Origin: Octopus vulgaris
Taxonomy: Eukaryota
Assembly (NCBI GenBank): GCA_951406725.2
Contig: OX597827.1
Coordinates: 43,958,001-44,022,000 of the forward strand
DNA length: 64,000 bases
Reading direction: 5' to 3'
The notes under the pieces are model-generated. The model was given only the letters and a program-made list of their open reading frames with translations, was not told where the DNA came from and did not search any database. The position numbers were made by a program, and so were the translations under genes. Positions 3,521 through 60,446 of this stretch are shown here, one piece after another. Positions within the stretch are counted from its first letter, which is position 1. Every line of letters starts with the position of its first letter.

Positions 3521-4605
3521 TAGTGAGAAATTAACGTGCATGGAGAATGGTTCAATCCCAGACTGGAAGAGTATTACTAAGCGAAACGTCACCTCGTTCA
3601 ATCCTCCCTGCATGACAGATGCCTTTTCTAATACAGCCAAAGACATTTTATCTTTAACCAGATACACGTAATTACGCTAAAGGCTTTAATTTGCATAAAA
3701 TTAAAGTTAGCTAATCTTACATAGAAACCATAACTTTCAACATAGCCTGCTGAAAAGCAGCCCAGATCACTGAGTGGCTTTTGTCTTTTCAAGGTTGTGG
3801 TCAATAGAGCACGAACAAGTCTAACTTCATCTAATGTTGCCCGTGAACTTATATGAGATTACATCTAACTGAAAGTAAAATGCTTATTCACTATCTGTGC
3901 TTCTTCAGTTCCAGAACCAGAGTAAACATTATCCGCCCGTCTAGTTTTATTTGTAGCCTTCAGAACTATGAAAATGACTAGCCTGGTGCAACCGGCAGCA
4001 TTCTAGACAAGGCAACGTTTTCCTTTCCCCGGAGCACACACCTGTAGTTTTTGTCCTTCTGAGTAAGTATACATACTGCAACAGCCAGCCATACCACTCG
4101 GTAAGAAAATGAACTGTCATACACGTACCACAAAAAGAGTTTTTTTGTTAGTTTATATTTAGCCCTTAGCTACAAGTCCCATAAATTTTTCGCGAAAATG
4201 TTCATTCTACTAATATTTCGAACAAAAAGGAAAACGAATAATTTTATTCGCTGCAGTATAGAATTGCCTTCTATTTACCAGTAAAGAAAGAGTTACCCAT
4301 TCCAATACGAGGCACGAAATAATTAATACGAATGAGCTTTACGAATGGTAGTACGCCATAATTAAAAACCTCATCAGTCACTCATTATGAGAGCGTTCAA
4401 ATGATTGCATGTTTTTCTGATCTACGAAACTTTTAGTATCGCAAACCTAAATTAAACTCATTAGGCAAGTATATTTTGCCATCATTATGTGCTGAGTGGT
4501 ACTTCCTTCTGTTTGTGTACCTAAACTCTTCTCTGTATGTGTGCGTGTGTGTATTTATATATACATATAAGTATAGATTTAGATATATATATATATTTGT
4601 AATGG

Positions 4606-5613: not shown

Positions 5614-6344
5614 TAAACGAGCACACATAAAGTACATCCATCCATACATACATACATACACACGCGCACATACATACTTACATACATTCATGCATACATA
5701 CATACATACATACATAAATACATATGCATATAGTTGTGACCTTGGCCTTGTTTTTCCGTACGTGTTTGCAAATAACTAGTGTTCTATAAAAAAAGAACAT
5801 GACTTATACCATTCAAAATTAATAAATATTAAAAAAAAACATAGCAAACTGAAATAAAAACTAGAACTCGCGTGATCGACTTGAAGGCGGTACCTCAGTA
5901 TGTTCACTGCTAAACGACTGAAATCATTAAAAAAAAACGGGCAAAATAAACCGTAGAAAATTGTGTTCCTATTGTCATAGAAAAATAGAATTGCGTAAAT
6001 AATAAATAATTCAGCGGTGCCATCTGTATGAAAGAGAATAGAAAATTTACTGGTAACATATTTAATACGAGTACCATTGAAAAACTGACGATAAAAATAT
6101 ATGCCGTGAGGAGAAAAATATAAATATTAATCAATAACGAATGACTTCTTTCGTATGCTTTAATCAGTAATGGACAACTGCAGTCATGTTTTGGTATTCT
6201 GTTGACCTCGTCAGTGAAACATAATTTTCTTTTTGTACTTGTCAAAGCAGCTGTAAAAGGATCACCAAGTAAATGTAGAAATATTAGGCATTTGTCGATG
6301 AAGGGGGGAAAAAGAATTGTTTCGAAAGGAGATGTGATTTTATT

Positions 6345-6563
6345 CTTTTCTTTTGTTCTTTTACTTGTTTCAGTCATTTTGACTGCGGCCATGCTGGAGC
6401 AACGCCTTTTAGTCGAGCAAATCGATCCCGGGACGTATTCTTTGTAAGTCTAGTACTTATTCTATCGGTCTCTTTTGCCGAACCGCTAAGTTACGGGGAC
6501 GTAAACACACCACCATCGGTTGTCAAGTGATGTTGGGGAACAAACAGACACACAAACAAACAG

Positions 6564-6649
<86 letters not shown>

Positions 6650-6811
6650 GATGGGCTTCTTTCAGTTTCCGTCTACCAAATCTACTCACAAGGCTTTGGT
6701 CGGCCCGAGGCTATAGTAGAAGGCACTTGCACAAGGTGACATGCAGTGGGACTGAACCCGGAACCATGTGGTTGGTAAGCAAGCTACTTACCACACAGCC
6801 ACATCTGCGCC
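6345..6811 (-). mobile_element. Full-length tRNA-derived SINE family A with an internal (CA)n/(TA)n tract
   Basis: The reverse complement starts GGCGCAG..TGGCTGTGTGGTAAG..CATGGTTCCGGGTTCAGTCCCACTG and ends ..CCAGCATGGCCGCAGTCAAAATGACTGAAACAAGTAAAAGA. Many copies occur in the window. Confidence 0.9.
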
Positions 6812-6849
6812 TATTTGTGAGAAATAGAAACACAAAATCGTTTATCTTT

Positions 6850-7045
6850 ACATGTTCCACTCATTGTACTGCGGCCATGCTGGAGCACTGCCATGAAGGA
6901 TTTAGTTGATATCAGCACGTCGAGGTTTTTTTTAAGGCTGGTGCTTATTCTCCCATTCTTTTCTGCTGAACGTCTAAATTACGGGGACGTAAATAAACCA
7001 GCACCGGTTATCAAGCGGTGGCGGGGACAAGCACTTACACAAAGA
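6850..7045 (-). mobile_element. SINE family A, 3' part
   Basis: TGCGGCCATGCTGGAGCAC...TTACGGGGACGTAAA...TCAAGCGGTG matches family A. Confidence 0.75.
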
Positions 7046-7149
7046 CACACACACACACGTGCATACATATATAACTGTGTGTGTTTATGTGTGTGTATAT
7101 ATATATATTTGTTGATTCTACCTATATTGGATCTGCGTGTGTGTGTGTG

Positions 7150-7189
<40 letters not shown>

Positions 7190-7209
7190 TGTGCGTGTGT
7201 GTAGTAGAC

Positions 7210-7572
7210 AATACTTGCCCGAGGATGGAGTAAAGAGCAATGATCCCGCTTTGGTCATGGATGATCATGGGTTTACACCAAGTAAGTTCCCCTCCAAGGC
7301 ACAAGTACGGGCAAGGTTATTTATGGATGACCAGCAGTCGCCCATGCATACCAGACACCCCACTCGACGCCACCGATGTTATCCAAAGGAAAGGCAAAGG
7401 CCGATACAGCTTGGCACCAGTGACATAGAAACTCATTTCTACAGCTGAGTGAACTGGAACAACGTGAAATAAAGTGTCTTGCTCAACAACACAACACACA
7501 GCGCAGTCTGGGAATCGAACTCACTTCCTCATGATTGTGAGCCCGACGTTCTTACCACAGAGCCATGCACCT
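7210..7572 (-). mobile_element. tRNA-derived SINE family D (CORE-like central domain)
   Basis: The reverse complement has A/B boxes (TGGCTCTGTGGTAAG, GAGTTCGATTCCC) and TTGAGCAAGACACTTTATTTCACGTTG, shared with 15027-15315. Confidence 0.8.
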
Positions 7573-7961
7573 AAAGACGGATAACTACGCTCAATTTTTT
7601 AAGGATAACTACGATCATTAATCTGAGTATAACTACGTTCGTTTTTCCCTACAAGACTCGGAGGTATCAAAAAGGATTATGTGCACTGTCCTTTCTCCTT
7701 AGGATAAGCCAGTAACAAAAAGAAAACCATTTTAAACATACTGCTAAGATTATGGGGACTCGGTGTAGCCTAGAGGATCCAAGCAGTAGATATGTGTTAA
7801 ATAGACTAATAACATCAGATGACTACCCACTAACCTGCTTTATTTTTTCCTCTGTTAAAAGCAATCGACCGAATCTGTTTGGTCGATAACTACAGGCTGT
7901 GGTTATCAACACACGATCGTAAAACGTACAAATCGATTTCAACATACATACATACATAAAT

Positions 7962-8000
<39 letters not shown>

Positions 8001-8082
8001 TATATATATATATAAAATAAATATATATGTATGTGTATATTATATATATATGTATAAATTGCACACACATTATGTATGTATG

Positions 8083-8130
<48 letters not shown>

Positions 8131-8153
8131 TATATATAAAGAGAGAGAGAGAC

Positions 8154-8204
<51 letters not shown>

Positions 8205-8275
8205 TATATATACACATATATATATGCATATATATACATACATATATATATACATACATATATATATATATATAC

Positions 8276-8335
<60 letters not shown>

Positions 8336-8831
8336 GTATGTATATATATACATATATGCATGTGTGTGTGTATGTGTGTGTGTGTGTGTGTGTGTGGTAC
8401 GTGAAACACGCTATACAGAAGAAAATGGCCGAACGAAACGAAAAGCTGAATAAATTGCTTGGATCAAGCAAGGGGCTGTGAATCATAATCGATAACAGTT
8501 GATTGATGATGTTGTAGGGAAATATGGCTGAAATGATGGTTTGACCTGATCTAAATACCGGACATCGTACAAAGCAGTTAAATCAGCGAATGAGATTGCT
8601 TAAACTATGACAAACGACTTCAATATCAACGTCTGCGAATCGTGTGTGTGTGTGTGTGTGAGTGTGTCTGCGTGTGTGTGTGTCTGTCTGTGTGTGTGTG
8701 TGAATGTGTGTGTGTGTGTGTGTGTGAATGTGTGTGTGCGTGAGTTTGTATGTGCAATGTGTGTATTTGCTGGGTATACATCGAAGCGCAAATTTCAAAG
8801 GCTAATGTGCATGCATATATATATATCGTAT

Positions 8832-8875
<44 letters not shown>

Positions 8876-9485
8876 GATATTACATATACTCATATGTACA
8901 TGTATATCATATATATATACACATATATATATACATCGATATTACATAGATATATATACTCATATGTACATGTATATAGTCATATACATACATATCTATA
9001 AATATACATACACACATATACATATATGTTTAAGCACACACACACACACGCGCACACACATACACACACACGCGCACACACATACACACACACATGCGCA
9101 TACGTGTAGTGCATGTTTGCGCATATCATTTAAACTTTATGCATGCGTTGTTGCATTGAAACACAAAGGTCATGCACACACACATACATATATTTATATA
9201 TGCATATTTATATATATACACACACACACATATATACATACACTCAGGCACACGCACGTATACGTTTGTATATATGTTTGTATACATATGTGTGTGTGTG
9301 TTTGCATGTGTGTGTATGTGTTTCTGTGTGTGTGTGTGTGTGTATGTGTGTATGTGTGTATGTGTGTGTGTGTATGTATGTGTGCGTGTGTGTGTGTGTA
9401 TCCTTCATCCGTTGCCCTGTTTACTTAATCGTACCATGCTTCTAACCTCATATATCATATTCTACTTCGTACGTGTATCTGTGTA

Positions 9486-9526
<41 letters not shown>

Positions 9527-10148
9527 GCTTACTTCCTCAGGAACTTTCCTTAGTTGATACAGATAACTGTAGCAGAGATTATTTGGCACGTACACAGAAT
9601 CAGAGACACAGTATGCAGTCTCAGAAACTAATATTTATCGCAGCGAACTCTAAGCGTTGATCTAATCAGCTATCAGCACATCACTTAATCACATATGGAT
9701 TGAATTTCCCTCCGAATTACATTATATGCGTCTTTCAAAACAGTAGCAACATTCTCCTCTACTTTTGTACGGGCAGGGAGATGGTCGAATCGTTCGAGAG
9801 TCAGACAAAATGCTTTTTGTGGTATTCAGTTAGGGGTCTTTATGTAGTGAGTTCAAATCCCACAGTAGTCAGCTACTTTGTTTCATTCCACCATCGGGCA
9901 TTGTCAAACGCTAATGCAGGTCGATGTAAATGACTAATACATTCTCTCTGACAATTTTGACGTTTTGTCTGATTTAGAAACCATTCTCTGTATTTGATAT
10001 GCAAATCGAATTTTTAGACCAAATTTATACCCAAAATAGACGGCTCGACTTATGCACTACGACAGAGTCAAAAAATTCCATGTAATATGTAGCAAGGTTT
10101 GGAAAGATAGTAACGATGTTTGAATGTTTATATGACATAGTTGTACTA

Positions 10149-10573
10149 TTGGATTGTCCGGAAAGTTCGTGCCGATTTATAATAGCTTACCTTTCGATTT
10201 ATTTTAGAACATAGTTGAGTCCATAAAATAGGATTTGACTACACCTCCATTTAGAGCACAGTTTAAGCTATCTTTTCGTGGAAGAAGATTTATGTTCCTA
10301 TAACCTGTGTTAATTCTGTAACCCTTTAAAATGGAAGATAAGAAAATTCATTTTCAGCCAATTCCTTGGATGACGTAAAAAGATACCTTGATGAATTCTT
10401 TGCCATGAAACCACCTCAATTCTGGGAAGAAGGTATTTTCAAGTTAACGGAAAGATGGAGACGTATTGTGCAACAAAATGGTTCATATTTGGTTGATTAA
10501 AAATGTAATGGCAATTATTTATTGACCTTTTTCTTTCCTTTAAAAATCGGCACGAACTTTCCGGACAACCCAA
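10149..10573 (+). mobile_element. Internally deleted mariner element (MITE) with TIRs and TA target duplication
   Basis: TA|TTGGATTGTCCGGAAAGTTCGTGCCGATTT...AAATCGGCACGAACTTTCCGGACAACCCAA|TA. It encodes the start MEDKKIHF joined to the C-terminus LDDVKRYLDEFFAMKPPQFWEEGIFKLTERWRRIVQQNGSYLVD*. Confidence 0.93.
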
Positions 10574-23098: not shown

Positions 23099-25602
<2,504 letters not shown>

Positions 25603-25807
25603 TGAGAGAAATCTACTATGAAAGGCTCATAGTATAATAACTATATAATAATATATCATAACAATATTTTATTCTCCAACAATTTTTTAAATACAAATAA
25701 CTAAAAGATTATGAGCTAACTCCATGGTAGCTTTTTCTGTAATTTACAAACCTTTCGCGTTTGTTTACAAATATTATATGTAGTGTGTGTGTATATATAC
25801 ATACATT

Positions 25808-25882
<75 letters not shown>

Positions 25883-26067
25883 TAGCAATTAAGGGTTTAG
25901 CAACGAATTGCCTCACCACACACCGAATTTAGAAATAGCAGTCAAAGATTTATAGCTATTCTTTCTACTAAAAGGGAGATCTCAGTAAAAACACAGCACT
26001 TGAAAGGCAAACACAGACAGGTAAGAGAGAATGAAATGACGGCAATCTATCATACAATTTTAAGTCA

Positions 26068-26159
26068 CCTACGGACGTACGTTTCGAAATCAGGTTTTAG
26101 GAAAGCATAAGAATTAGAAAATTCTACCTTACCCAAACTTCTTTTCTCATCAGTGTAGG
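26068..26159 (-). ncRNA. Type I hammerhead ribozyme (mirror copy; one stem I mismatch)
   Basis: Reverse complement reads CCTACA-CTGATGA-GAAA..TTTC-GAAA-CGTACG-TC-CGTAGG. Confidence 0.75.
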
Positions 26160-26221
26160 ATACTACAATTATGAATAATTGTATATTAAATTTAATATAC
26201 AATTATTCATAATTGTAGTAT

Positions 26222-26312
26222 CCTACGCTGATGAGAAAAAAGTTTGGGTAAGGTAGAATTTTCTAATTCTTATGCTTTCCTAAAACCTGATTTCGAAACG
26301 TACGTCCGTAGG
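26222..26312 (+). ncRNA. Type I hammerhead ribozyme, canonical core
   Basis: Stem I CCTACG/CGTAGG; CTGATGA at 26228-26234; a 60-nt stem II closed by GAAA/TTTC with inner AGAATT/AATTCT; GAAA at 26295-26298; palindromic stem III CGTACG; GUC cleavage triplet ending at 26306. Confidence 0.85.
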
Positions 26313-26598
26313 TGACTTAAAATTGTATGATAGATTGCCGTCATTTCATTCTCTCTTACCTGTCTGTGTTTGCCTTTCAAGTGCTGTGTTTTTACTGAGA
26401 TCTCCTTTTAGTAGAAAGAATAGCTATAAATCTTTGACTGCTATTTCTAAATTCGGTGTGTGGTGAGGCAATTCGTTGCTAAACCCTTAATTGCTTAGTA
26501 TTACTTAAATTTTCCTCGAATGAGGCTTTTACATGCCGAAATCTACTTGGTGTAATTAATAATTATTCCAAATTATTTAATTTCACCCTTTATTGTTA

Positions 26599-26649
<51 letters not shown>

Positions 26650-26653
<4 letters not shown>

Positions 26654-27007
26654 TATTAGAGAGTTACCACTATGTGGATAGCTCTAGTGCTAAAAATAGC
26701 TCCGATAGTATAGCCACAGTATAGCTACATATTACATTAGTAATGAAACAATTGTTCAGGGTCAATCTATTTATTCGTTATATTTCACTTTCCTTCCGTT
26801 AAATGTAATGTTATTTCTAGTTGGAAACATCATTTCTGTGGCTATACTATCGGAGCTATTTTTAGCACTAGAGCTCTCCACATAGTGGTAACTCTCTAAT
26901 AATTTATGTATAAATTTGTATTTTCTCCCTAGTTTTTTGTGCTAAGCCACTCGGTGTTAAATAAATGGTATTATTAAATTAATATCAATTTTCACCCTCA
27001 TTTATAA

Positions 27008-27599: not shown

Positions 27600-28380
27600 C
27601 ACTCAAATGTGGACGTAATATACCTTGACTTTGCAAAAGCTTTTGATAAAGTGGATAATGGTATGATATGCCACAAACTGCGTGATCTTGGCATAGCTGG
27701 AAAACTTGGAGAGTGTTTACATCGTTCTTAAAGAAAGAAGTCATGCAGTAGTAGCCAATGGAGCCACCTCAAAGAAAACAAAAATAGTGAGCCATATTCC
27801 ACAGGGTACTGTCTTGGGACCTCTGCTTTTCATAGTGGCCTTCTCAGATATGCCGTCAGCTGCCCGGATATCCACACTTCCTAGTTTCGCAGACGATACG
27901 AAAGTCTCGCAGAAAATACAGAACCCCAGCAATGTTGCACACCTGCAGCAGGAGTTGGACTCAATTTGTAGATGGGATGAGGACAATAATATGCAGTTTG
28001 ATGCTGAAAAGTTCCACACCCTGCGCTACCAGCGTCCAAAGCTGAATGTAAAACTTACAGGGTACACTGGTCCACAGGGGATTGCAATCCCAGAGCCTAA
28101 ATCAGTGAAGGACCAAAGTATCGACATGAGTGATGATACCTCTTTCCAAATGCACATTACCAGAATGGCCACAAAGTGCAGACGACTAGTTGGATGGATC
28201 CTGAGAACGTTCAGAACCAGAGAGAAGAAAACCATGATGGTCCTCTGGAGGGCATTTGCCCACAGCCGCCTGGAGTACTGCTCCCAAATATGGTCACCCA
28301 ACAGTGTAAAATTAAAAGCGGGCCTTGAAGCAATCCAGCGAAGCTTCACAAAGAAGATCGTCGCGTTGCAACAGCTCAAC
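27600..28380 (+). pseudogene. CR1-group (Jockey/CR1/L2-like) non-LTR retrotransposon RT fragment, frameshifted
   Basis: DVIYLDFAKAFDKV, PQGTVLGPLLF, FADDTK and SRLEYCSQIWSP motifs; frameshift near 27710. Confidence 0.92.
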
Positions 28381-28402
28381 ACAAAGACACACATAGACAT
28401 AC

Positions 28403-28433
<31 letters not shown>

Positions 28434-28482
28434 CGCGCGCGCACGTGTGTGTGTTGTGTGTGTGTGTGTGTGTGTGTGTATA

Positions 28483-28635
28483 CACAACGGGTTTCTTTCA
28501 GTTTCCGCATACCAAATCCACTCAGAAAGCTTTGGTCAGCTCGAGGCTACAGTAGAAGACACCTGCCCAAGGTGCCACGCAGTGGGGCTGAACCCGGAAC
28601 CATGTGGTTGGTAAGCAAGCTTCTTACCACACAGC
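28483..28635 (-). mobile_element. SINE family A, 5' part
   Basis: Matches 6648-6800. Confidence 0.85.
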
Positions 28636-36556: not shown

Positions 36557-37640
36557 CTGGTCAACAGCCAATTTTCATCAGGGATATTATATGGTGTTTT
36601 ATATGTAGTTTTGTCCGCAGATTTCAAAAACGTAATCAGTTTCCTTCTATCAGGTACAGTTTTTCTGATGAGATAAGAGAGGTATATAACTCTCATCAGT
36701 AGTATCGCTGCACGTAAACATCTTATACAGGTAAATTCTGACTTCTGTTTTATAACTATTTGTATTCATTTTGTAATTTTATGTTTTCATAATCTTTTCT
36801 TTTCATAAAGTTTAATTTTGTCATGTCTGTGGTTCATTTACCACCAAAGCTCAGCAACGTGCCATCACAAGTGAAATCAAGAAGATCTACCAGTTATATT
36901 TTGGCTGCTCTCTTGGGGATCAAGATAAGAGTTGGGTAATAAGAAACCATCCATTCTCACAGGACATTCAGTGCACATGAAGGAGTGTTATGAAAACATG
37001 CGAGTACTCCTCAATGCCATAAAGTATACAAACTACAGCTGGAAAATATGTGGAGACTTGATGGTGATTGGAATGTTGATGGGAATGCAACCTGGGTTCA
37101 CGAAATATTGTTATTTTTTATGCCTATGGGACAGTCGTGCAACTGACAAGCACTATGTGCAATCAGAGTGGCCTTTGCGAAAATCATATGAGCCGGGAGT
37201 TTCTAGCGTCCAGAGTAAGCCACTTTTAAACCAAGAAAATTTTCTTCTTCTCCCTCTTCACATAAAGCTTGGCCTCATGAAACAATTCGTGAAGACACTT
37301 GCCAGGAAAAGCTCAAAAGGTTTTGAATATATGAAGGCCAAATTTCAAAAAATCACCGAGGCAAAACTGAAGGTGGGCGTATTCATAGGTCCGCAGATAA
37401 AAGAACTCCTGAAGAACAACCACTTCCTTATATCATTGGATGAGATTGAGCTTAAACCTGGGAATCCTTCAAATGGCTCTGAAAATTTCCTAGGCAACAA
37501 GAGATCTCTAGAATTTAGATGTGGAGTGAAATGTCTTCGAGACTCCTACGCTGCAATGGGCTGTCGGAGCCAGGTCATTTGACCGTTAATATTCAATAGG
37601 GATATTATGACTGAATCACAGAGGAGTTGTATTTGAAAAA
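36557..37640 (+). mobile_element. Chapaev3-like (CMC superfamily) DNA transposon remnant with decayed transposase (36932-37582)
   Basis: WKICGDLMVIGMLMGMQPGFTKYCYFLCLWDSRA, PLHIKLGLMKQFVK, KLKVGVFIGPQIKELL and NFLGNKR match Chapaev3 transposase motifs as recalled. The left end is (C/T)ACTGGTCAAC-like. Confidence 0.82.
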
Positions 37641-40005: not shown

Positions 40006-41513
40006 GATGAAGCAAATGAAAGCTAGATGAAGCAAATGAAATAAAAGAATTAGACCAAAGCCAAACTTACAAATACTTAGGAATCCATGAACTAGATAAG
40101 ACACAACACACACAAATGAAAGAGAAAAAAAAGAATATTATAGACGAGTTAGATCAATACTAAACACAGAGCTCAATGCTAAAAACAAGATAATAGGTAT
40201 CAACACTTTAGCTGTCCCAGTTATAAGTTACAGCTACAATATCCTTAACTGGACACGAAATGAACTGACCAAAATAGACAGGAAAACAAGAAAAATAATG
40301 ACAGGATCTAGGATGCATCACCCAAAATCTGACATAGAAAGACTATATATACAACGTATAGAAGGTGGTAGAGGCCTTATACAGCTGGAAAACTACTATA
40401 AAATAACCACCATAGGACTGCAAAAATATCTACTTCAGAAGGAAGGAAAACTGATCCAGATAGCGGCAAAACACGAGCAAAACAAAAAACTGTTCTCAGT
40501 ATTTAAGGAAGCTGACAAATACAAACAAGAAATCATACCACCTAATAAACATGAAGAAGAAGAAGAAGATGAAGAAACAACAAAAGCTATAAAAAAAATG
40601 AAATCCAAACTAAAAATAGAACAGCAAAGAACCATGATAAAACGATGGCAAGAAAAGCCCCTTCATGGTAAATACTGGACTAAACTAAACGCAAAAGAAA
40701 TAGACAAAGAAAAATCCCAGCAATGGCTGAGAAGCTCAGGACTCAAAGCAGAAACAGAGGGATTTTTAATTGCAGCACAAGACCAAAGCCTCCCCACCAG
40801 AAATTACCAAAAACATGTAATGAAAAGAAATATTACAAGTAACTGCAGAATATGTGGAGATGGACAAGAAACAATAAATCATATTATCTCTAGCTGCCCA
40901 GTCCTGGCTAAGAAGGAATATATTCACAGACATGACAGAGTTGGAACTTACATACATTGGAAGCTATGCCAACATTATGGAATAACAACAGAAAAAAGAT
41001 GGTATAGGCACACACCAGAAAAGGTCACAGAAAACGAGAAAGCAACCATACTCTGGGATATGCCGATACACACAGATAGAGAAATTAAGGCCAACAGACC
41101 AGATATAGTTGTCAGAGACCATGAAGAAAAAAAATGCTTTCTAATTGATGTATCAGTACCGGCAGATGACAACGTGTCTCTAAAAGAAATGGAGAAACTC
41201 TCAAAATACAAAGACCTGGAAATAGAGGTAACTAGAATGTGGAATCTGAAAACAGAAACAATTCCTATCATAGTAGGTGCATTAGGCATGATAAAAAAAT
41301 ATTCAGACAAATACATAACAAAAACACCAGGACTTACAAACACATATAACATACAGAAAATTGCACTACTGGGCACTGCACACATCCTACGCAGAACACT
41401 TTCCATACAATAACCATCAGAGCATCACAACAAATCACAGCACATACCCAAGGCACACAGAGCTGTGCTCGGTAGTGAAGTGAAAGCACGCTATAAAAAT
41501 AAAAATAAAACTA

Positions 41514-41871: not shown

Positions 41872-41929
<58 letters not shown>

Positions 41930-42324
41930 CTTGGTCTGATCAATAAGTGTCAGGATTGTTGCTATAGTAAAGGAGTTATAGCACGCAAAGTGAAGCCGCT
42001 TGACACAGATTGGCTGTGCATGCGCACTAAGTTTTAACGTTCTTGCTCACTTCCGCTGTTTATAGCAGTGTTTAGAAATAACGTGTGTAACGTGTGATCG
42101 CCGCACTGAACATGACAGAGAAAATTGAGCAAGGAATCTACGTCAAATTGTGCAAAAAGCGATACCTGCTCAAAGCCCTACGCAATGTTTTCAGAAAGTT
42201 TTTATCGTTCCCAGCGCAATCAAGGAGATTTTGTACTACTGAAACCCGGACGTCCTTTTGGTCTGCTGAAAGCAGTTTTGATACAAACTTGGGAGACACG
42301 CATCTCATACCCAAATCTACAGTG
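41930..42324 (+). mobile_element. Mariner-derived element, second copy of the 1-504 family
   Basis: TA|CTTGGTCTGATCAATAAGT TIR; MTEKIEQG..VKLC; the same junction into the inverted internal segment. A short fragment also occurs at 20996-21035. Confidence 0.82.
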
Positions 42325-42351
42325 ACATTGTTGTTGAGATAGGCTCTCTTT

Positions 42352-42433
42352 CTTTCCTGATGAGAAGATTGCGTTTTACACCGTTTATTCCTTTGGAATA
42401 AACCAATGTTGTCTTCGAAACATATGTCGAAAG
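42352..42433 (+). ncRNA. Type I hammerhead ribozyme, canonical core
   Basis: Stem I CTTTC/GAAAG; CTGATGA at 42357-42363; stem II GAAGAT..GTCTTC with inner GTTTATTCC-TTT-GGAATAAAC; GAAA at 42417-42420; palindromic CATATG; GUC ending at 42428. Confidence 0.85.
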
Positions 42434-42622
42434 TAAAAGAATTTTAATAACATCTTCGTTCAACTCCATTTATTTACTTATACTGCACAAATTACTACAC
42501 ATTAACCCGGAGATTCTAACTTTGAATAGGTCGCTTCATCCGTGTTACTTGAGTGAATTTTGCTAACCTGGTAACTGTTTATTGAATTTTCCATGTTAAC
42601 GGTAAACAAAGGATAATTTAGA

Positions 42623-42682
<60 letters not shown>

Positions 42683-57774: not shown

Positions 57775-60446
57775 CCAAATTTACATTAAATCTGGGATTT
57801 TGAAGTTAGTTTTGGCAGCAAACTTATCTTTTAAAGAGAATTCGGTGTCATACTCTTTGTATGCAATATGTACCAAAGTTGCACCTCTTCTAATACTTGG
57901 TAAATTTTCTATATATCATCCATAATCTTCTCACATAATAAATTTATCGATACAAATATTGTATATGACGTAATTACCTATCGTACGCGTTCATTATTTG
58001 TTTATACTTGTATCATCCCAGGCAACAACTAGTTACAACGCGATGGTGGCCGCTTGTAAACTTGTCTGAAACTCTGACACCACCGGTTGACAGTTTGGCT
58101 GTGTTGATGGTGTACGCTTCGTTTGTTACTAGCGAATTAAAACTTGCTTGACAATATTTTGAGTGAGTGTTTTTGTTTTATAATCCTTTGCGAAGTAATA
58201 GCAGACAAATGTATGTCCAAAAAGAGGAAGTGGTACACCCAAAATTTCAAAAACTCATGGTTGGAGGATGCCGAGCTTAAAAATTGGTTACGCCATGATG
58301 AAAGAAAATATTGACACCTGCCACTGCGTTTGTTGCGACGTTGTATTGCAAAATGCTAATAAATCAATGCTGTTAGCTCATAAAAACACTGCCAAACTCA
58401 AGAAAGCTTTCGATTGTGCGAAAACTTCTATTAAATTAGATTCATTTATTGTTAAAAAAAAAAGATGATACATTAAATGAAACAGTAATTAAGGCAAACT
58501 TGCTTCTAACAGGTTATCTTGCTGAACATCACATACCTTTCATCCATGAAATTTGTAAAAAGACCTTTACCGATAGTGAAATAACTAAAAATCTACAAAT
58601 GAGAAAAACTAAATTAACATACATTATGCTAGACGGAATTGCACATTATCAACGAAATGAAATCTTGGAAATTTTCAAGAAACAAAAGTTTTCATTATTG
58701 AGAGATGAGAGTACGGGCATCTCAGTGACACAAATCTTAGCAATAGTTGTTCGCTTTTTTGATGAACAATCGCTTAATGTCAAGGATGCTCTTCTGGATA
58801 CAATTATAGTAGAAAATGGTTCGTCTCAGGGTTTGTATGATTCTATCAAGTCTACGCTTACAAAAGAAGATGTATCTATGAGCAACATACTTGCATTTTT
58901 CCAGCGATAATAGCTCAACAATGACGGGTGGCAAGAGCGGGTTTCAAAAGTTATTGAGAAACGATATTCCAACTGTATTTACAATATGCTGTGTTTGCCA
59001 TTCGTTTGCACTTTGTTCAAGTCATGCAGTGAAGGTGTTACCTTTGTATCTCGAGTCCTTTTTAAAGAACTTAACTTCTTACTTTTCTCGAAGTAGCAAA
59101 CGTTAAAATGACTTCAATATGATACAAAGTGTTGCTGGCACAAAAGAAAACAAGATTCCAAAGCTTTCACACACTGGATGGTTGTCGCGTGAAAATGTAA
59201 TTAACGTTATAATAGAACAGTGGGATGCCCTTGTACTTTATTTTCAGTCAGAGGCTAAAGTTGAGAAAGTGGACGGAGCAAAAAGGATGTATGAAAATGA
59301 TTAACAAAGGGGCGAAGCAGATGCTGCTCTTCTTATATTATATATTAAAGAAAGTAAAAGCTCTTAATGTCGAGTTTTAATCGGAACACTTTTGACTGCA
59401 TCTGTTGCATACACTCGTAACCAGTGAATATAAAAGTATCTTTAGCTGCTTTATAAAAGAGAATGTTTTAGCTGTATCTAAATTATCAGATATTGATCTT
59501 AATAACACAACAAATCACAAAGATATGATTGATATTTACTTCGGTGGATGTGCAATGAGATATCTAGAACAAAACCCCCATCGTTGGTGACTCAGCTAGA
59601 TTCAAAACCGATTGCAAACATTTTTTAATAGAATTATGCTCTCATATAAAAATGTGCTTTTCTCCCGATGAAAGCTGGAGTGCTTACTCTTTTAGAAATA
59701 CTTGATCCAAAAGTAACACGCGGTCTCACTAACTCTCCTCAATTAATAATTCCTTTGTCATCAAACTTTCTAGCAATCGCAAAGAAAACATACTTGATGA
59801 ACTAGACGATGAGTGAAGATTTTTTTCGGTAATATAAAGATATTCCTGTTGCCTCAAAAAGCTTCCCTGAATTCCAGTATTCCATACGCAATCTTAAAGA
59901 CGGGCTTGACCAGTCTAAATTTGAGAGGCTGTCACAATTCATGACTAATTTAACGGTATTGCATCATTCATCAGCGTGCGTGGATCGCATATTTTCCCAA
60001 GTAAGTTGTACAAAGACAAAGTTCACTAATAGGTTGAAGGCCGAAACGATTACCGATCGTCCACTCGCTAAACAAGCAATTACAAGAAAGGGAGCGTCAT
60101 GCATTTCTTGAGAGCCGAACGCTAAACTTATTAAAGATGTGGAGAGTGGATGGGTCTTGTCACCGTTGATATACGAGTAGATTGAACTTCAAAAAGGAAG
60201 AAAATATAGTTATCACCATTGAAGAAGTGAATGAAGATGATGTGGATGTGTACGAAATTGACAATTAGCTGCCATATGATATAAAGTAAGTATTAAATTC
60301 TGGATTCATTTTGTCATATAACATATTTTATCAAGGAATGACCATTTTTATACCTGTTTTCTAACATTTGGGTTTATAAAATAGGATCTGAGTTTTTCGC
60401 AGCAAATAATCTGGGTGTTTTATTACTTGATGAGTGGCAACCCTGG
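57775..60446 (+). mobile_element. hAT DNA transposon with a full-length but decayed transposase (about 58212-60270)
   Basis: MSKKRKWYTQNFKNSWL..CHCVCC..H (zinc finger), FSLLRDESTGIS, SDNSSTMTG, CVCHSFALC, TGWLSR and HSSACVDRIFSQV..NRL (hAT dimerisation domain). The right TIR GTGGCAACCCTG (reverse complement CAGGGTTGCCAC) is visible; the left TIR is not. Confidence 0.88.

Follow-up and report, generated by a model that had tools for sequence, protein, structure and literature searches.

Around position 26190 of the window (the whole 64,000-nt stretch of Octopus vulgaris DNA that was analysed, to which all coordinates refer) lies a near-perfect palindrome with a hammerhead motif in each arm. 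The palindrome is one insertion of two truncated copies of a 583-bp monomer lying back to back, and not the element itself. We think it likely that the two 5′-truncated, head-to-head copies were placed in a (TA)n tract by a borrowed Penelope-like reverse transcriptase (RT)/endonuclease, which would have primed at both ends of the same break. On its sequence and insertion anatomy, the element is best read as a non-autonomous retrozyme of the Penelope-like element (PLE) type. The observations behind this reading are the monomer and its copy number, the (TA)n target, the two 3′ ends and their regular pairing, the variable junctions and the conserved ribozyme; the steps of the mechanism are what we infer from them.

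Organization of the Palindrome

The initial annotation described a spacerless foldback centred at 26190/26191, with (TA)n on either side and no open reading frame (ORF), and all of this holds. The inverted arms (25884–26190 and 26191–26495) are reverse complements with a 0-nt spacer, apart from one substitution (26154/26227) and two one-base indels. The (TA)n tracts that form the left and right targets are read directly from the sequence at 25792–25884 and 26602–26650, and the longest stop-free frame of the family monomer is 69 aa. Monomer positions are counted here from m1, the base matching 26191. The left copy (25884–26190, minus strand) runs from m581 to m307, and its 3′ end, called site A, abuts (TA)n. 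The right copy (26191–26604, plus strand) likewise has its 5′ end at m581 and continues to approximately m416, where its 3′ end, site B, abuts (TA)n. Each arm is shorter than one monomer unit, and the two overlap by 6 nt on the hexamer AAATTT (26188–26193, m581–m3), a native palindrome of the monomer common to both arms. There is no spacer because both arms end at this hexamer. In an unbiased sample described below, the two 5′ ends lie no more than 5 nt apart in 2 of 42 head-to-head insertions, against 0.8 expected by chance, so that chance could account for a spacerless palindrome, although such cases are uncommon. A conserved 3′ module (26440–26601, plus strand) contains both site A (~26495–26501) and site B (~26601–26604). 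The stretch from site A to site B forms a tail of ~100 nt (26496–26604, plus strand) in a single arm only. This tail had been taken to be unique, which is true inside the palindrome, whereas 26496–26601 is ordinary family sequence.

Several other repeats are found in the window. A second head-to-head insertion, of another family, lies in the same (TA)n tract at 26651–27002 (1,173 candidates); its inverted arm is short, its long arm is ~100 nt longer and, judged by eye, its B-end motif resembles that of the monomer. It also retains the 3′ half of a hammerhead whose stem III is CAATTG; this hammerhead is complete in 6 of 11 other copies. Adjoining the palindrome, an imperfect inverted repeat between (TA)n tracts (25372–25780) has no clear likeness to the monomer, and upstream of the palindrome a 95-bp direct repeat (24351–24445 and 25197–25291) is 98% identical at a spacing of 846 bp. 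A long-stem-II hammerhead with stem III CATATG is present at 42357–42428 (plus strand) within a (TA)n-bounded insert (~41905–42625), and this ribozyme type also makes up the pLTR of an older PLE family. The frames at 27697–28614, 40100–41413, 36929–37582 and 58440–58910 presumably resemble a LINE RT, a restriction-like non-LTR element and two DNA transposases.

The 583-bp Monomer Family

The right arm together with its tail is a repeat, with full-length matches 96–99% identical among the best 40 of 3,127 candidates scored. Upstream of the point that corresponds to the palindrome centre, other copies continue for 172 bp, and they are arranged in partial tandems, head to tail, that repeat every 583 bp. 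In addition, contigs from independent runs pass the centre (with loose ends at 26188) into normal monomer sequence, and contigs of four runs, which we guess to be RNA and which may be DNA, cover most of the monomer. Since copies and contigs continue past it, the centre belongs to the insertion in the window and not to the element. The monomer has a GC content of 36% and the tandem structure expected of a non-LTR retrozyme, i.e., non-coding units with a period of 583 and one type I hammerhead in each. A hammerhead encoded on either strand of the element, as initially proposed, was not borne out, as the unit is a single-ribozyme monomer and the inversion point is specific to the insertion; whole ribozymes on both strands occur in only 4 of 85 insertions (strict pattern).

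A genome-wide check of copy number returned 544 exact matches to a 22-nt ribozyme core and none to its reversed control. The copies are dispersed, 5′-truncated and often partly tandem, and they lie in (TA)n, with (TA)4+ within 40 nt of 118 of 123 ends at site A or B. The longest arm spans ~2.5 periods (1486 nt), and no long tandem arrays were present among the first 100 of the 544 core matches. The earlier view of a young, non-autonomous hammerhead retroelement of the PLE or retrozyme kind in (TA)n agrees with these copies, across which the ribozyme stems covary.

Sister subfamilies are ~85% and ~75% identical to the monomer (15–28% apart overall), and sister families share the 3′ module at 68–91% identity. 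The predicted fold of the module has a multibranch stem around site A and a hairpin ahead of site B; its covariation is weak (4 of 29 pairs compensated, term −0.11). Two remoter relatives of the 3′ module are non-coding tandems of ~555–565 nt with variant ribozyme motifs. Tandems of this length that share the 3′ module lie at loci L394 (978–1698) and L440; the ribozyme core looks degenerate in L394, which could show whether cleavage is required. In the literature outside Repbase, subscription papers and supplements, we found no report of the 583-bp family or of the pairing counts given below; Repbase or paper supplements may already list either.

The Predicted Hammerhead Ribozyme

As initially proposed, each arm carries a putative type I hammerhead with a palindromic CGUACG stem III. 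The plus-strand motif (26222–26312) has a 6-bp stem I (26222–26227/26307–26312), CTGATGA at 26228, 60 nt of stem II followed by GAAA at 26295, stem III CGTACG, and GTC with C26306, after which the cut is predicted. The minus-strand motif (26068–26159) has 61 nt in stem II, an A–C mismatch beside the core at 26154 and a predicted cut after 26074. Both are assigned to type I on the CUGANGA/GAAA/UH core, the three-way junction and the location of the 5′ and 3′ ends in stem I. Among 18 copies selected only by their 3′ part, the 12 core bases are identical in 211 of 216 cases (98%) compared with 982 of 1304 (75%) downstream. Position N7 varies in these copies (T, A, G), stems I and III are 93–96% identical, and the remaining stem II and downstream flank 75%. 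A lack of stem covariation across copies had been named as evidence against the ribozyme; compensatory pairs were found instead, with two-sided changes in 4 of 12 pairs of stems I and II and 97% of cells paired (11 hand-picked sequences). None of 500 shuffles did as well in score or percentage paired and 26 of 500 in the number of pairs, while slid controls gave 17–39%.

A search with the Rfam hammerhead models, suggested by the initial annotation, matched no hammerhead family in the locus or the full monomer (E up to 1 or 10), a miss that we attribute to the 60-nt stem II. Rfam matches to miRNA precursors fell below the gathering score, reflect the hairpin and were set aside. A long-stem-II pattern with four stem III bases left free occurs at 4,202 places genome-wide (control, 0), many of them in divergent pairs. 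In the loci analysed, the stem III hexamer is palindromic in 207 of 233 matches and of nine kinds (overlapping loci included; 128 represent the selected family), so that at least nine kinds occur in the genome. The long-stem-II hammerheads suggest that standard surveys undercount ribozymes in such genomes.

According to a review, PLE hammerheads with short palindromic stem III likely cleave as dimers (PMC6765202), and of nine predicted Xenopus elements one cleaved, as reported in a preprint (bioRxiv 10.64898/2026.07.22.740005). The stem III 10-mer duplex of the monomer is computed at −11.2 kcal/mol. The ribozyme fold lies 3 kcal/mol above the free-energy minimum, a fold without stem III. The mismatch in the minus-strand copy had been offered as a natural comparison of activity. 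It does sit at the first pair of stem I, but it looks like decay and not design, because the change is of the CpG type and recurs in 3 of 118 other arms.

Two 3′ Ends and the A+B Rule

Insertion anatomy was scored in a sample picked only on the ribozyme core: 100 of the 544 core matches, on contigs C1–C3, gave 85 insertions once overlaps were merged. The 3′ ends fall at two sites ~100 nt apart, site A (m285–325, mostly m307–313) and site B (m400–430, mostly m411–416), each adjoining short TA/AT matches, while the positions of the junctions vary between insertions. Among the 43 one-arm insertions, 37 end at A, 4 at B and 2 elsewhere. The 42 head-to-head insertions comprise 32 A+B, a sole A+A case resting on a borderline 33-nt arm, no B+B and 9 with one end elsewhere. 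When both ends lie at A or B, 32 of 33 are therefore A+B, where independent choice predicts about half (p = 4e-9). The insertion in the window is also of the A+B type.

The A+B rule extends beyond the monomer family. In the sister subfamilies 23 of 24 two-arm insertions are A+B (47 loci), a count in which only the second arm is free because the query contained site B. All 19 head-to-head insertions analysed (of 20 observed pairs) of an autonomous PLE with a 727-aa ORF are A+B as well. Adjacent inverted copies, a (TA)n bias and a tail often present at one end only have been described for PLEs (PMC8557442), and it is the A+B counts that are added here. Indeed, 5′ truncation, partial tandems, an inverted copy, a one-sided tail and a microsatellite target are all found in the monomer insertions, and the same anatomy is seen in the intact 727-aa PLE family of this genome. 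The 5′ ends of 9 of 43 B arms lie at m196–211, at a predicted hairpin, and may mark an RT pause.

These counts bear on two other accounts of the palindrome. That it is an assembly fold-back artefact seems hardly credible: none of the independent contigs listed was seen to span the centre (these contigs are short, with repeats skipped) and two of the three differences between the arms are single-base deletions within or next to homopolymers, but the mirror symmetry ends at the family-specific sites A and B, the outer flanks are unrelated, and the same anatomy recurs in 42 of 85 insertions and in other families. Alternatively, a cDNA primed at site B could have folded back on AAATTT and copied itself into a second arm by DNA synthesis. 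The exact centre on a native palindrome, the 99% likeness of the arms and the left arm being a subset of the right would all suit such an event. It offers, however, no reason why the left arm should end at site A, as do 37 of 43 one-arm insertions. Moreover, the 5′ ends of most two-arm insertions bear no relation to each other, and neither arm is a subset of the other (e.g., 909 vs 129 nt), and coincident 5′ ends are about as rare as chance predicts. Fold-back is thus disfavoured for the family, and we regard it as unlikely.

In L1 twin priming, one break is primed twice, which leaves an inverted 5′ segment with a microhomology joint, and the second site is variable, just upstream of the first cDNA stop. 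The monomer insertions resemble it in the two primings at one break and in the microhomology joint. L1-type twin priming itself was rejected, as the sites are fixed here and the arms overlap by hundreds of bases.

The Template: Circle or Multimer

The arms in the window share two near-private variants, one absent from all 126 other arms compared and the second found in 1 of 149. Across the family, the median divergence between the arms of an insertion is 0.9%, compared with 4.2% between loci, and successive periods within an arm also differ by a median of 0.9% (41 arms). In all 43 two-arm insertions with enough overlap, the arms are closer to each other than to the median other copy; for most insertions one template is inseparable from sibling templates, since only 14 of the 43 pairs are closer to each other than to the nearest other copy. 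Of the A arms, 71 of 80 cross the predicted cut site, as do 20 of 43 B arms; a 5′ end within 10 nt of it was seen in no A arm and in one B arm. Because arms run across the cut site and almost none end there, a cleaved linear monomer is excluded as the template, which leaves a circle or an uncleaved multimer.

One version of events keeps the same element and the same two-ended priming and takes as template an uncleaved linear transcript of a tandem source locus, the ribozyme acting at another step or only rarely; it would replace only the first and fourth steps of the mechanism given below. We grant it an appreciable, though lesser, probability. In vitro, an anole PLE was reported to use mainly unprocessed RNA, with no reads ending at the cut site (Frangieh et al., 2024; PMC11167929), and in locus L023 the tandem monomers differ at several shared sites, which is not expected from one circle. 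On the other hand, the longest arm reaches only ~2.5 periods and long arrays were absent from the matches inspected, copying a linear source with 5′ truncation would only shorten arrays, and the ribozyme core is kept across subfamilies 15–28% apart. L023 and the in vitro preference thus favour a multimer, the short arrays and conserved core a circle. In the reading that we prefer, a single RNA, possibly a circle, is the likely template for both priming events.

Autonomous PLEs in the Genome

At least three PLE families with long ORFs are present in the genome. A 781-aa family (L081–L086) has RVT_1 and GIY-YIG matches and a CX4CXXC linker; its ORF is intact and overlaps an upstream frame of as many as 401 codons, and inspection by eye showed a variant hammerhead-like motif near the 3′ end of the element. 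The 727-aa family (L371:3595–3690, L372–L390) is young, as 150 of 150 scored matches, the best of a longer candidate list, are 98–100% identical; it has a 3′ UTR of ~1.1 kb, a tail of ~70 nt and a short hammerhead-like motif ~45 nt before end A. In the third, older family, the pLTR carries a long-stem-II hammerhead with CATATG. From their motifs, we take the 781-aa family to be Neptune-like and the other two Nematis-like.

The monomer has no ORF for RT and GIY-YIG, and no DNA shared between it and the three PLE families examined was found. An autonomous partner was not found with GIY-YIG, two RT fragments, ribozyme patterns or four diverged 3′ modules as queries, the protein searches each scoring the best 150 of 6,136–10,500 candidates. 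The linkage to PLE RT/GIY-YIG ORFs that the initial annotation proposed to look for was seen at none of the 207 loci with monomer-like DNA (of 335; 20 of the 207 with a PLE-protein match) and at none of 61 further loci. Apparent links at L049/L097, L017/L098, L119 and L414 proved to be independent insertions with (TA)n or an inversion joint between them. In a single case, of which no second was seen, a decayed PLE 3′ region joins the monomer at m140 without (TA)n (L002:2357–3413), possibly by a template switch or by insertion into an older element. The missing partner, the lack of shared DNA and the PLE-protein neighbours, which on inspection were separate insertions or had no link to the family, all count against a PLE-driven origin.

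A Predicted Hairpin in Read-Through Transcripts

The palindrome had been expected to yield a long dsRNA. Thermodynamically this is certain, conditional on read-through: the computed fold of a read-through transcript is −533 kcal/mol with 99% of bases paired, and either palindrome strand folds at approximately −530 kcal/mol compared with −62.5 for one arm. On either strand the antisense arm would be made first and would capture the ribozyme as it emerges, and since it precedes the ribozyme in either transcript, the copy in the window is likely catalytically silent and probably a dead end. It is very unlikely that selection maintains the palindrome for an RNA with two ribozymes or a long hairpin that would give edited or small RNAs. 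The predicted fold would suit such a role, but the junctions are insertion-specific, the copy is young and yet has a CpG-type change in one stem I, and the locus is not distinct from 42 similar insertions.

Proposed Mechanism

In the mechanism that we propose, the monomer RNA would first cleave itself, probably as a dimer via the palindromic stem III, and would probably be circularised. Second, a PLE protein would bind the conserved 3′ module and cut both strands of (TA)n. Third, priming would start from one 3′-OH at site A and from the second 3′-OH at site B, beside a short TA/AT match in both cases. Fourth, the two cDNAs would be made on a common template, in many cases continuing past the cut site and for more than one period. 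Finally, the cDNA ends would be joined by microhomology, here the self-complementary AAATTT, giving a spacerless palindrome.

The origin of PLE inverted repeats and tails has been called an open question (PMC8557442). For the anole Poseidon element PAc, two RT start sites and the cutting and extension of both target strands have been reported in vitro; as in the monomer, the two start sites lie downstream of the hammerhead and define a tail, and the target is AT-rich (Frangieh et al., 2024; PMC11167929). In the same assays no difference in start site was reported between the strands, whereas the double insertions of the genome studied here almost always use one site each, and ribozyme cleavage was not needed; both points tell against the proposed mechanism. 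So do the monomer differences in L023, the free-energy minimum without stem III and the weak covariation of the 3′ module, as well as the tail of ~100 nt, where 30–40 is usual.

More tentatively, PLE integration may be obligately asymmetric, one RNP placing A on one side and B on the other from a single RNA, and long-stem-II monomers may survive without a related autonomous element as circles that present a two-site module to a PLE enzyme in trans. We hold this generalization to be possible but short of probable.

Comparison with Known Elements

The monomer and the metazoan non-LTR retrozymes are both non-coding tandem monomers with one type I hammerhead per unit, have a GC content below 45%, and occur with thousands of related motifs and with PLEs in the same genome (Cervera and de la Pena, 2020; PMC7229834; bioRxiv 10.64898/2026.07.22.740005). 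The monomer is 583 nt long, compared with 170–400 (Cervera and de la Pena, 2020) and 51–972 (Li et al., preprint), and its 60-nt stem II is unlike those described in these sources. The monomer copies are dispersed as short partial tandems that show a tail and inversion of the PLE type, whereas the main text of PMC7229834 never uses the word "inverted". Furthermore, no autonomous PLE with a related pLTR was found here, while 21 PLEs were matched in Xenopus (bioRxiv 10.64898/2026.07.22.740005).

With EN+ PLEs that have a C-terminal GIY-YIG (Penelope/Poseidon, Neptune, Nematis), the monomer shares 5′ truncation, partial tandems, an inverted copy, a one-end tail and a microsatellite target (Craig et al., 2021; PMC8557442), as well as a type I hammerhead with palindromic stem III (PMC6765202). 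It differs from them, as they are described, in lacking an ORF and in its longer tail and stem II, the ribozyme of EN+ PLEs being minimal (PMC8557442). Non-autonomous Chlamys elements such as MRC1 are likewise non-coding, pLTR-forming, arranged head to tail and thought to be moved by PLEs. In that description (PMC8557442), however, their 3′ ends are like those of their autonomous partners and most have no canonical hammerhead, whereas the monomer has a hammerhead and its partner was not found.

Implications

Taken alone, the locus in the window is unremarkable, a probably inactive copy among hundreds, and the family-wide A+B rule and the long-stem-II ribozymes matter more. Here a retrozyme is tied to PLE-type integration by anatomy and not by sequence likeness. 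Approximately half of the insertions are inverted repeats, a potential source of long hairpin RNA if host transcription reads through them. The near-strict A+B rule, which holds for a non-coding RNA of 583 nt and for an intact PLE from one and the same genome, makes for a specific prediction and provides a small test substrate. If the asymmetric scheme put forward above is true, the genome would contain, by the thousand, readable products of the step from which inverted pLTRs and tails arise, together with ~4,200 hammerheads whose form escaped Rfam in the monomer family.
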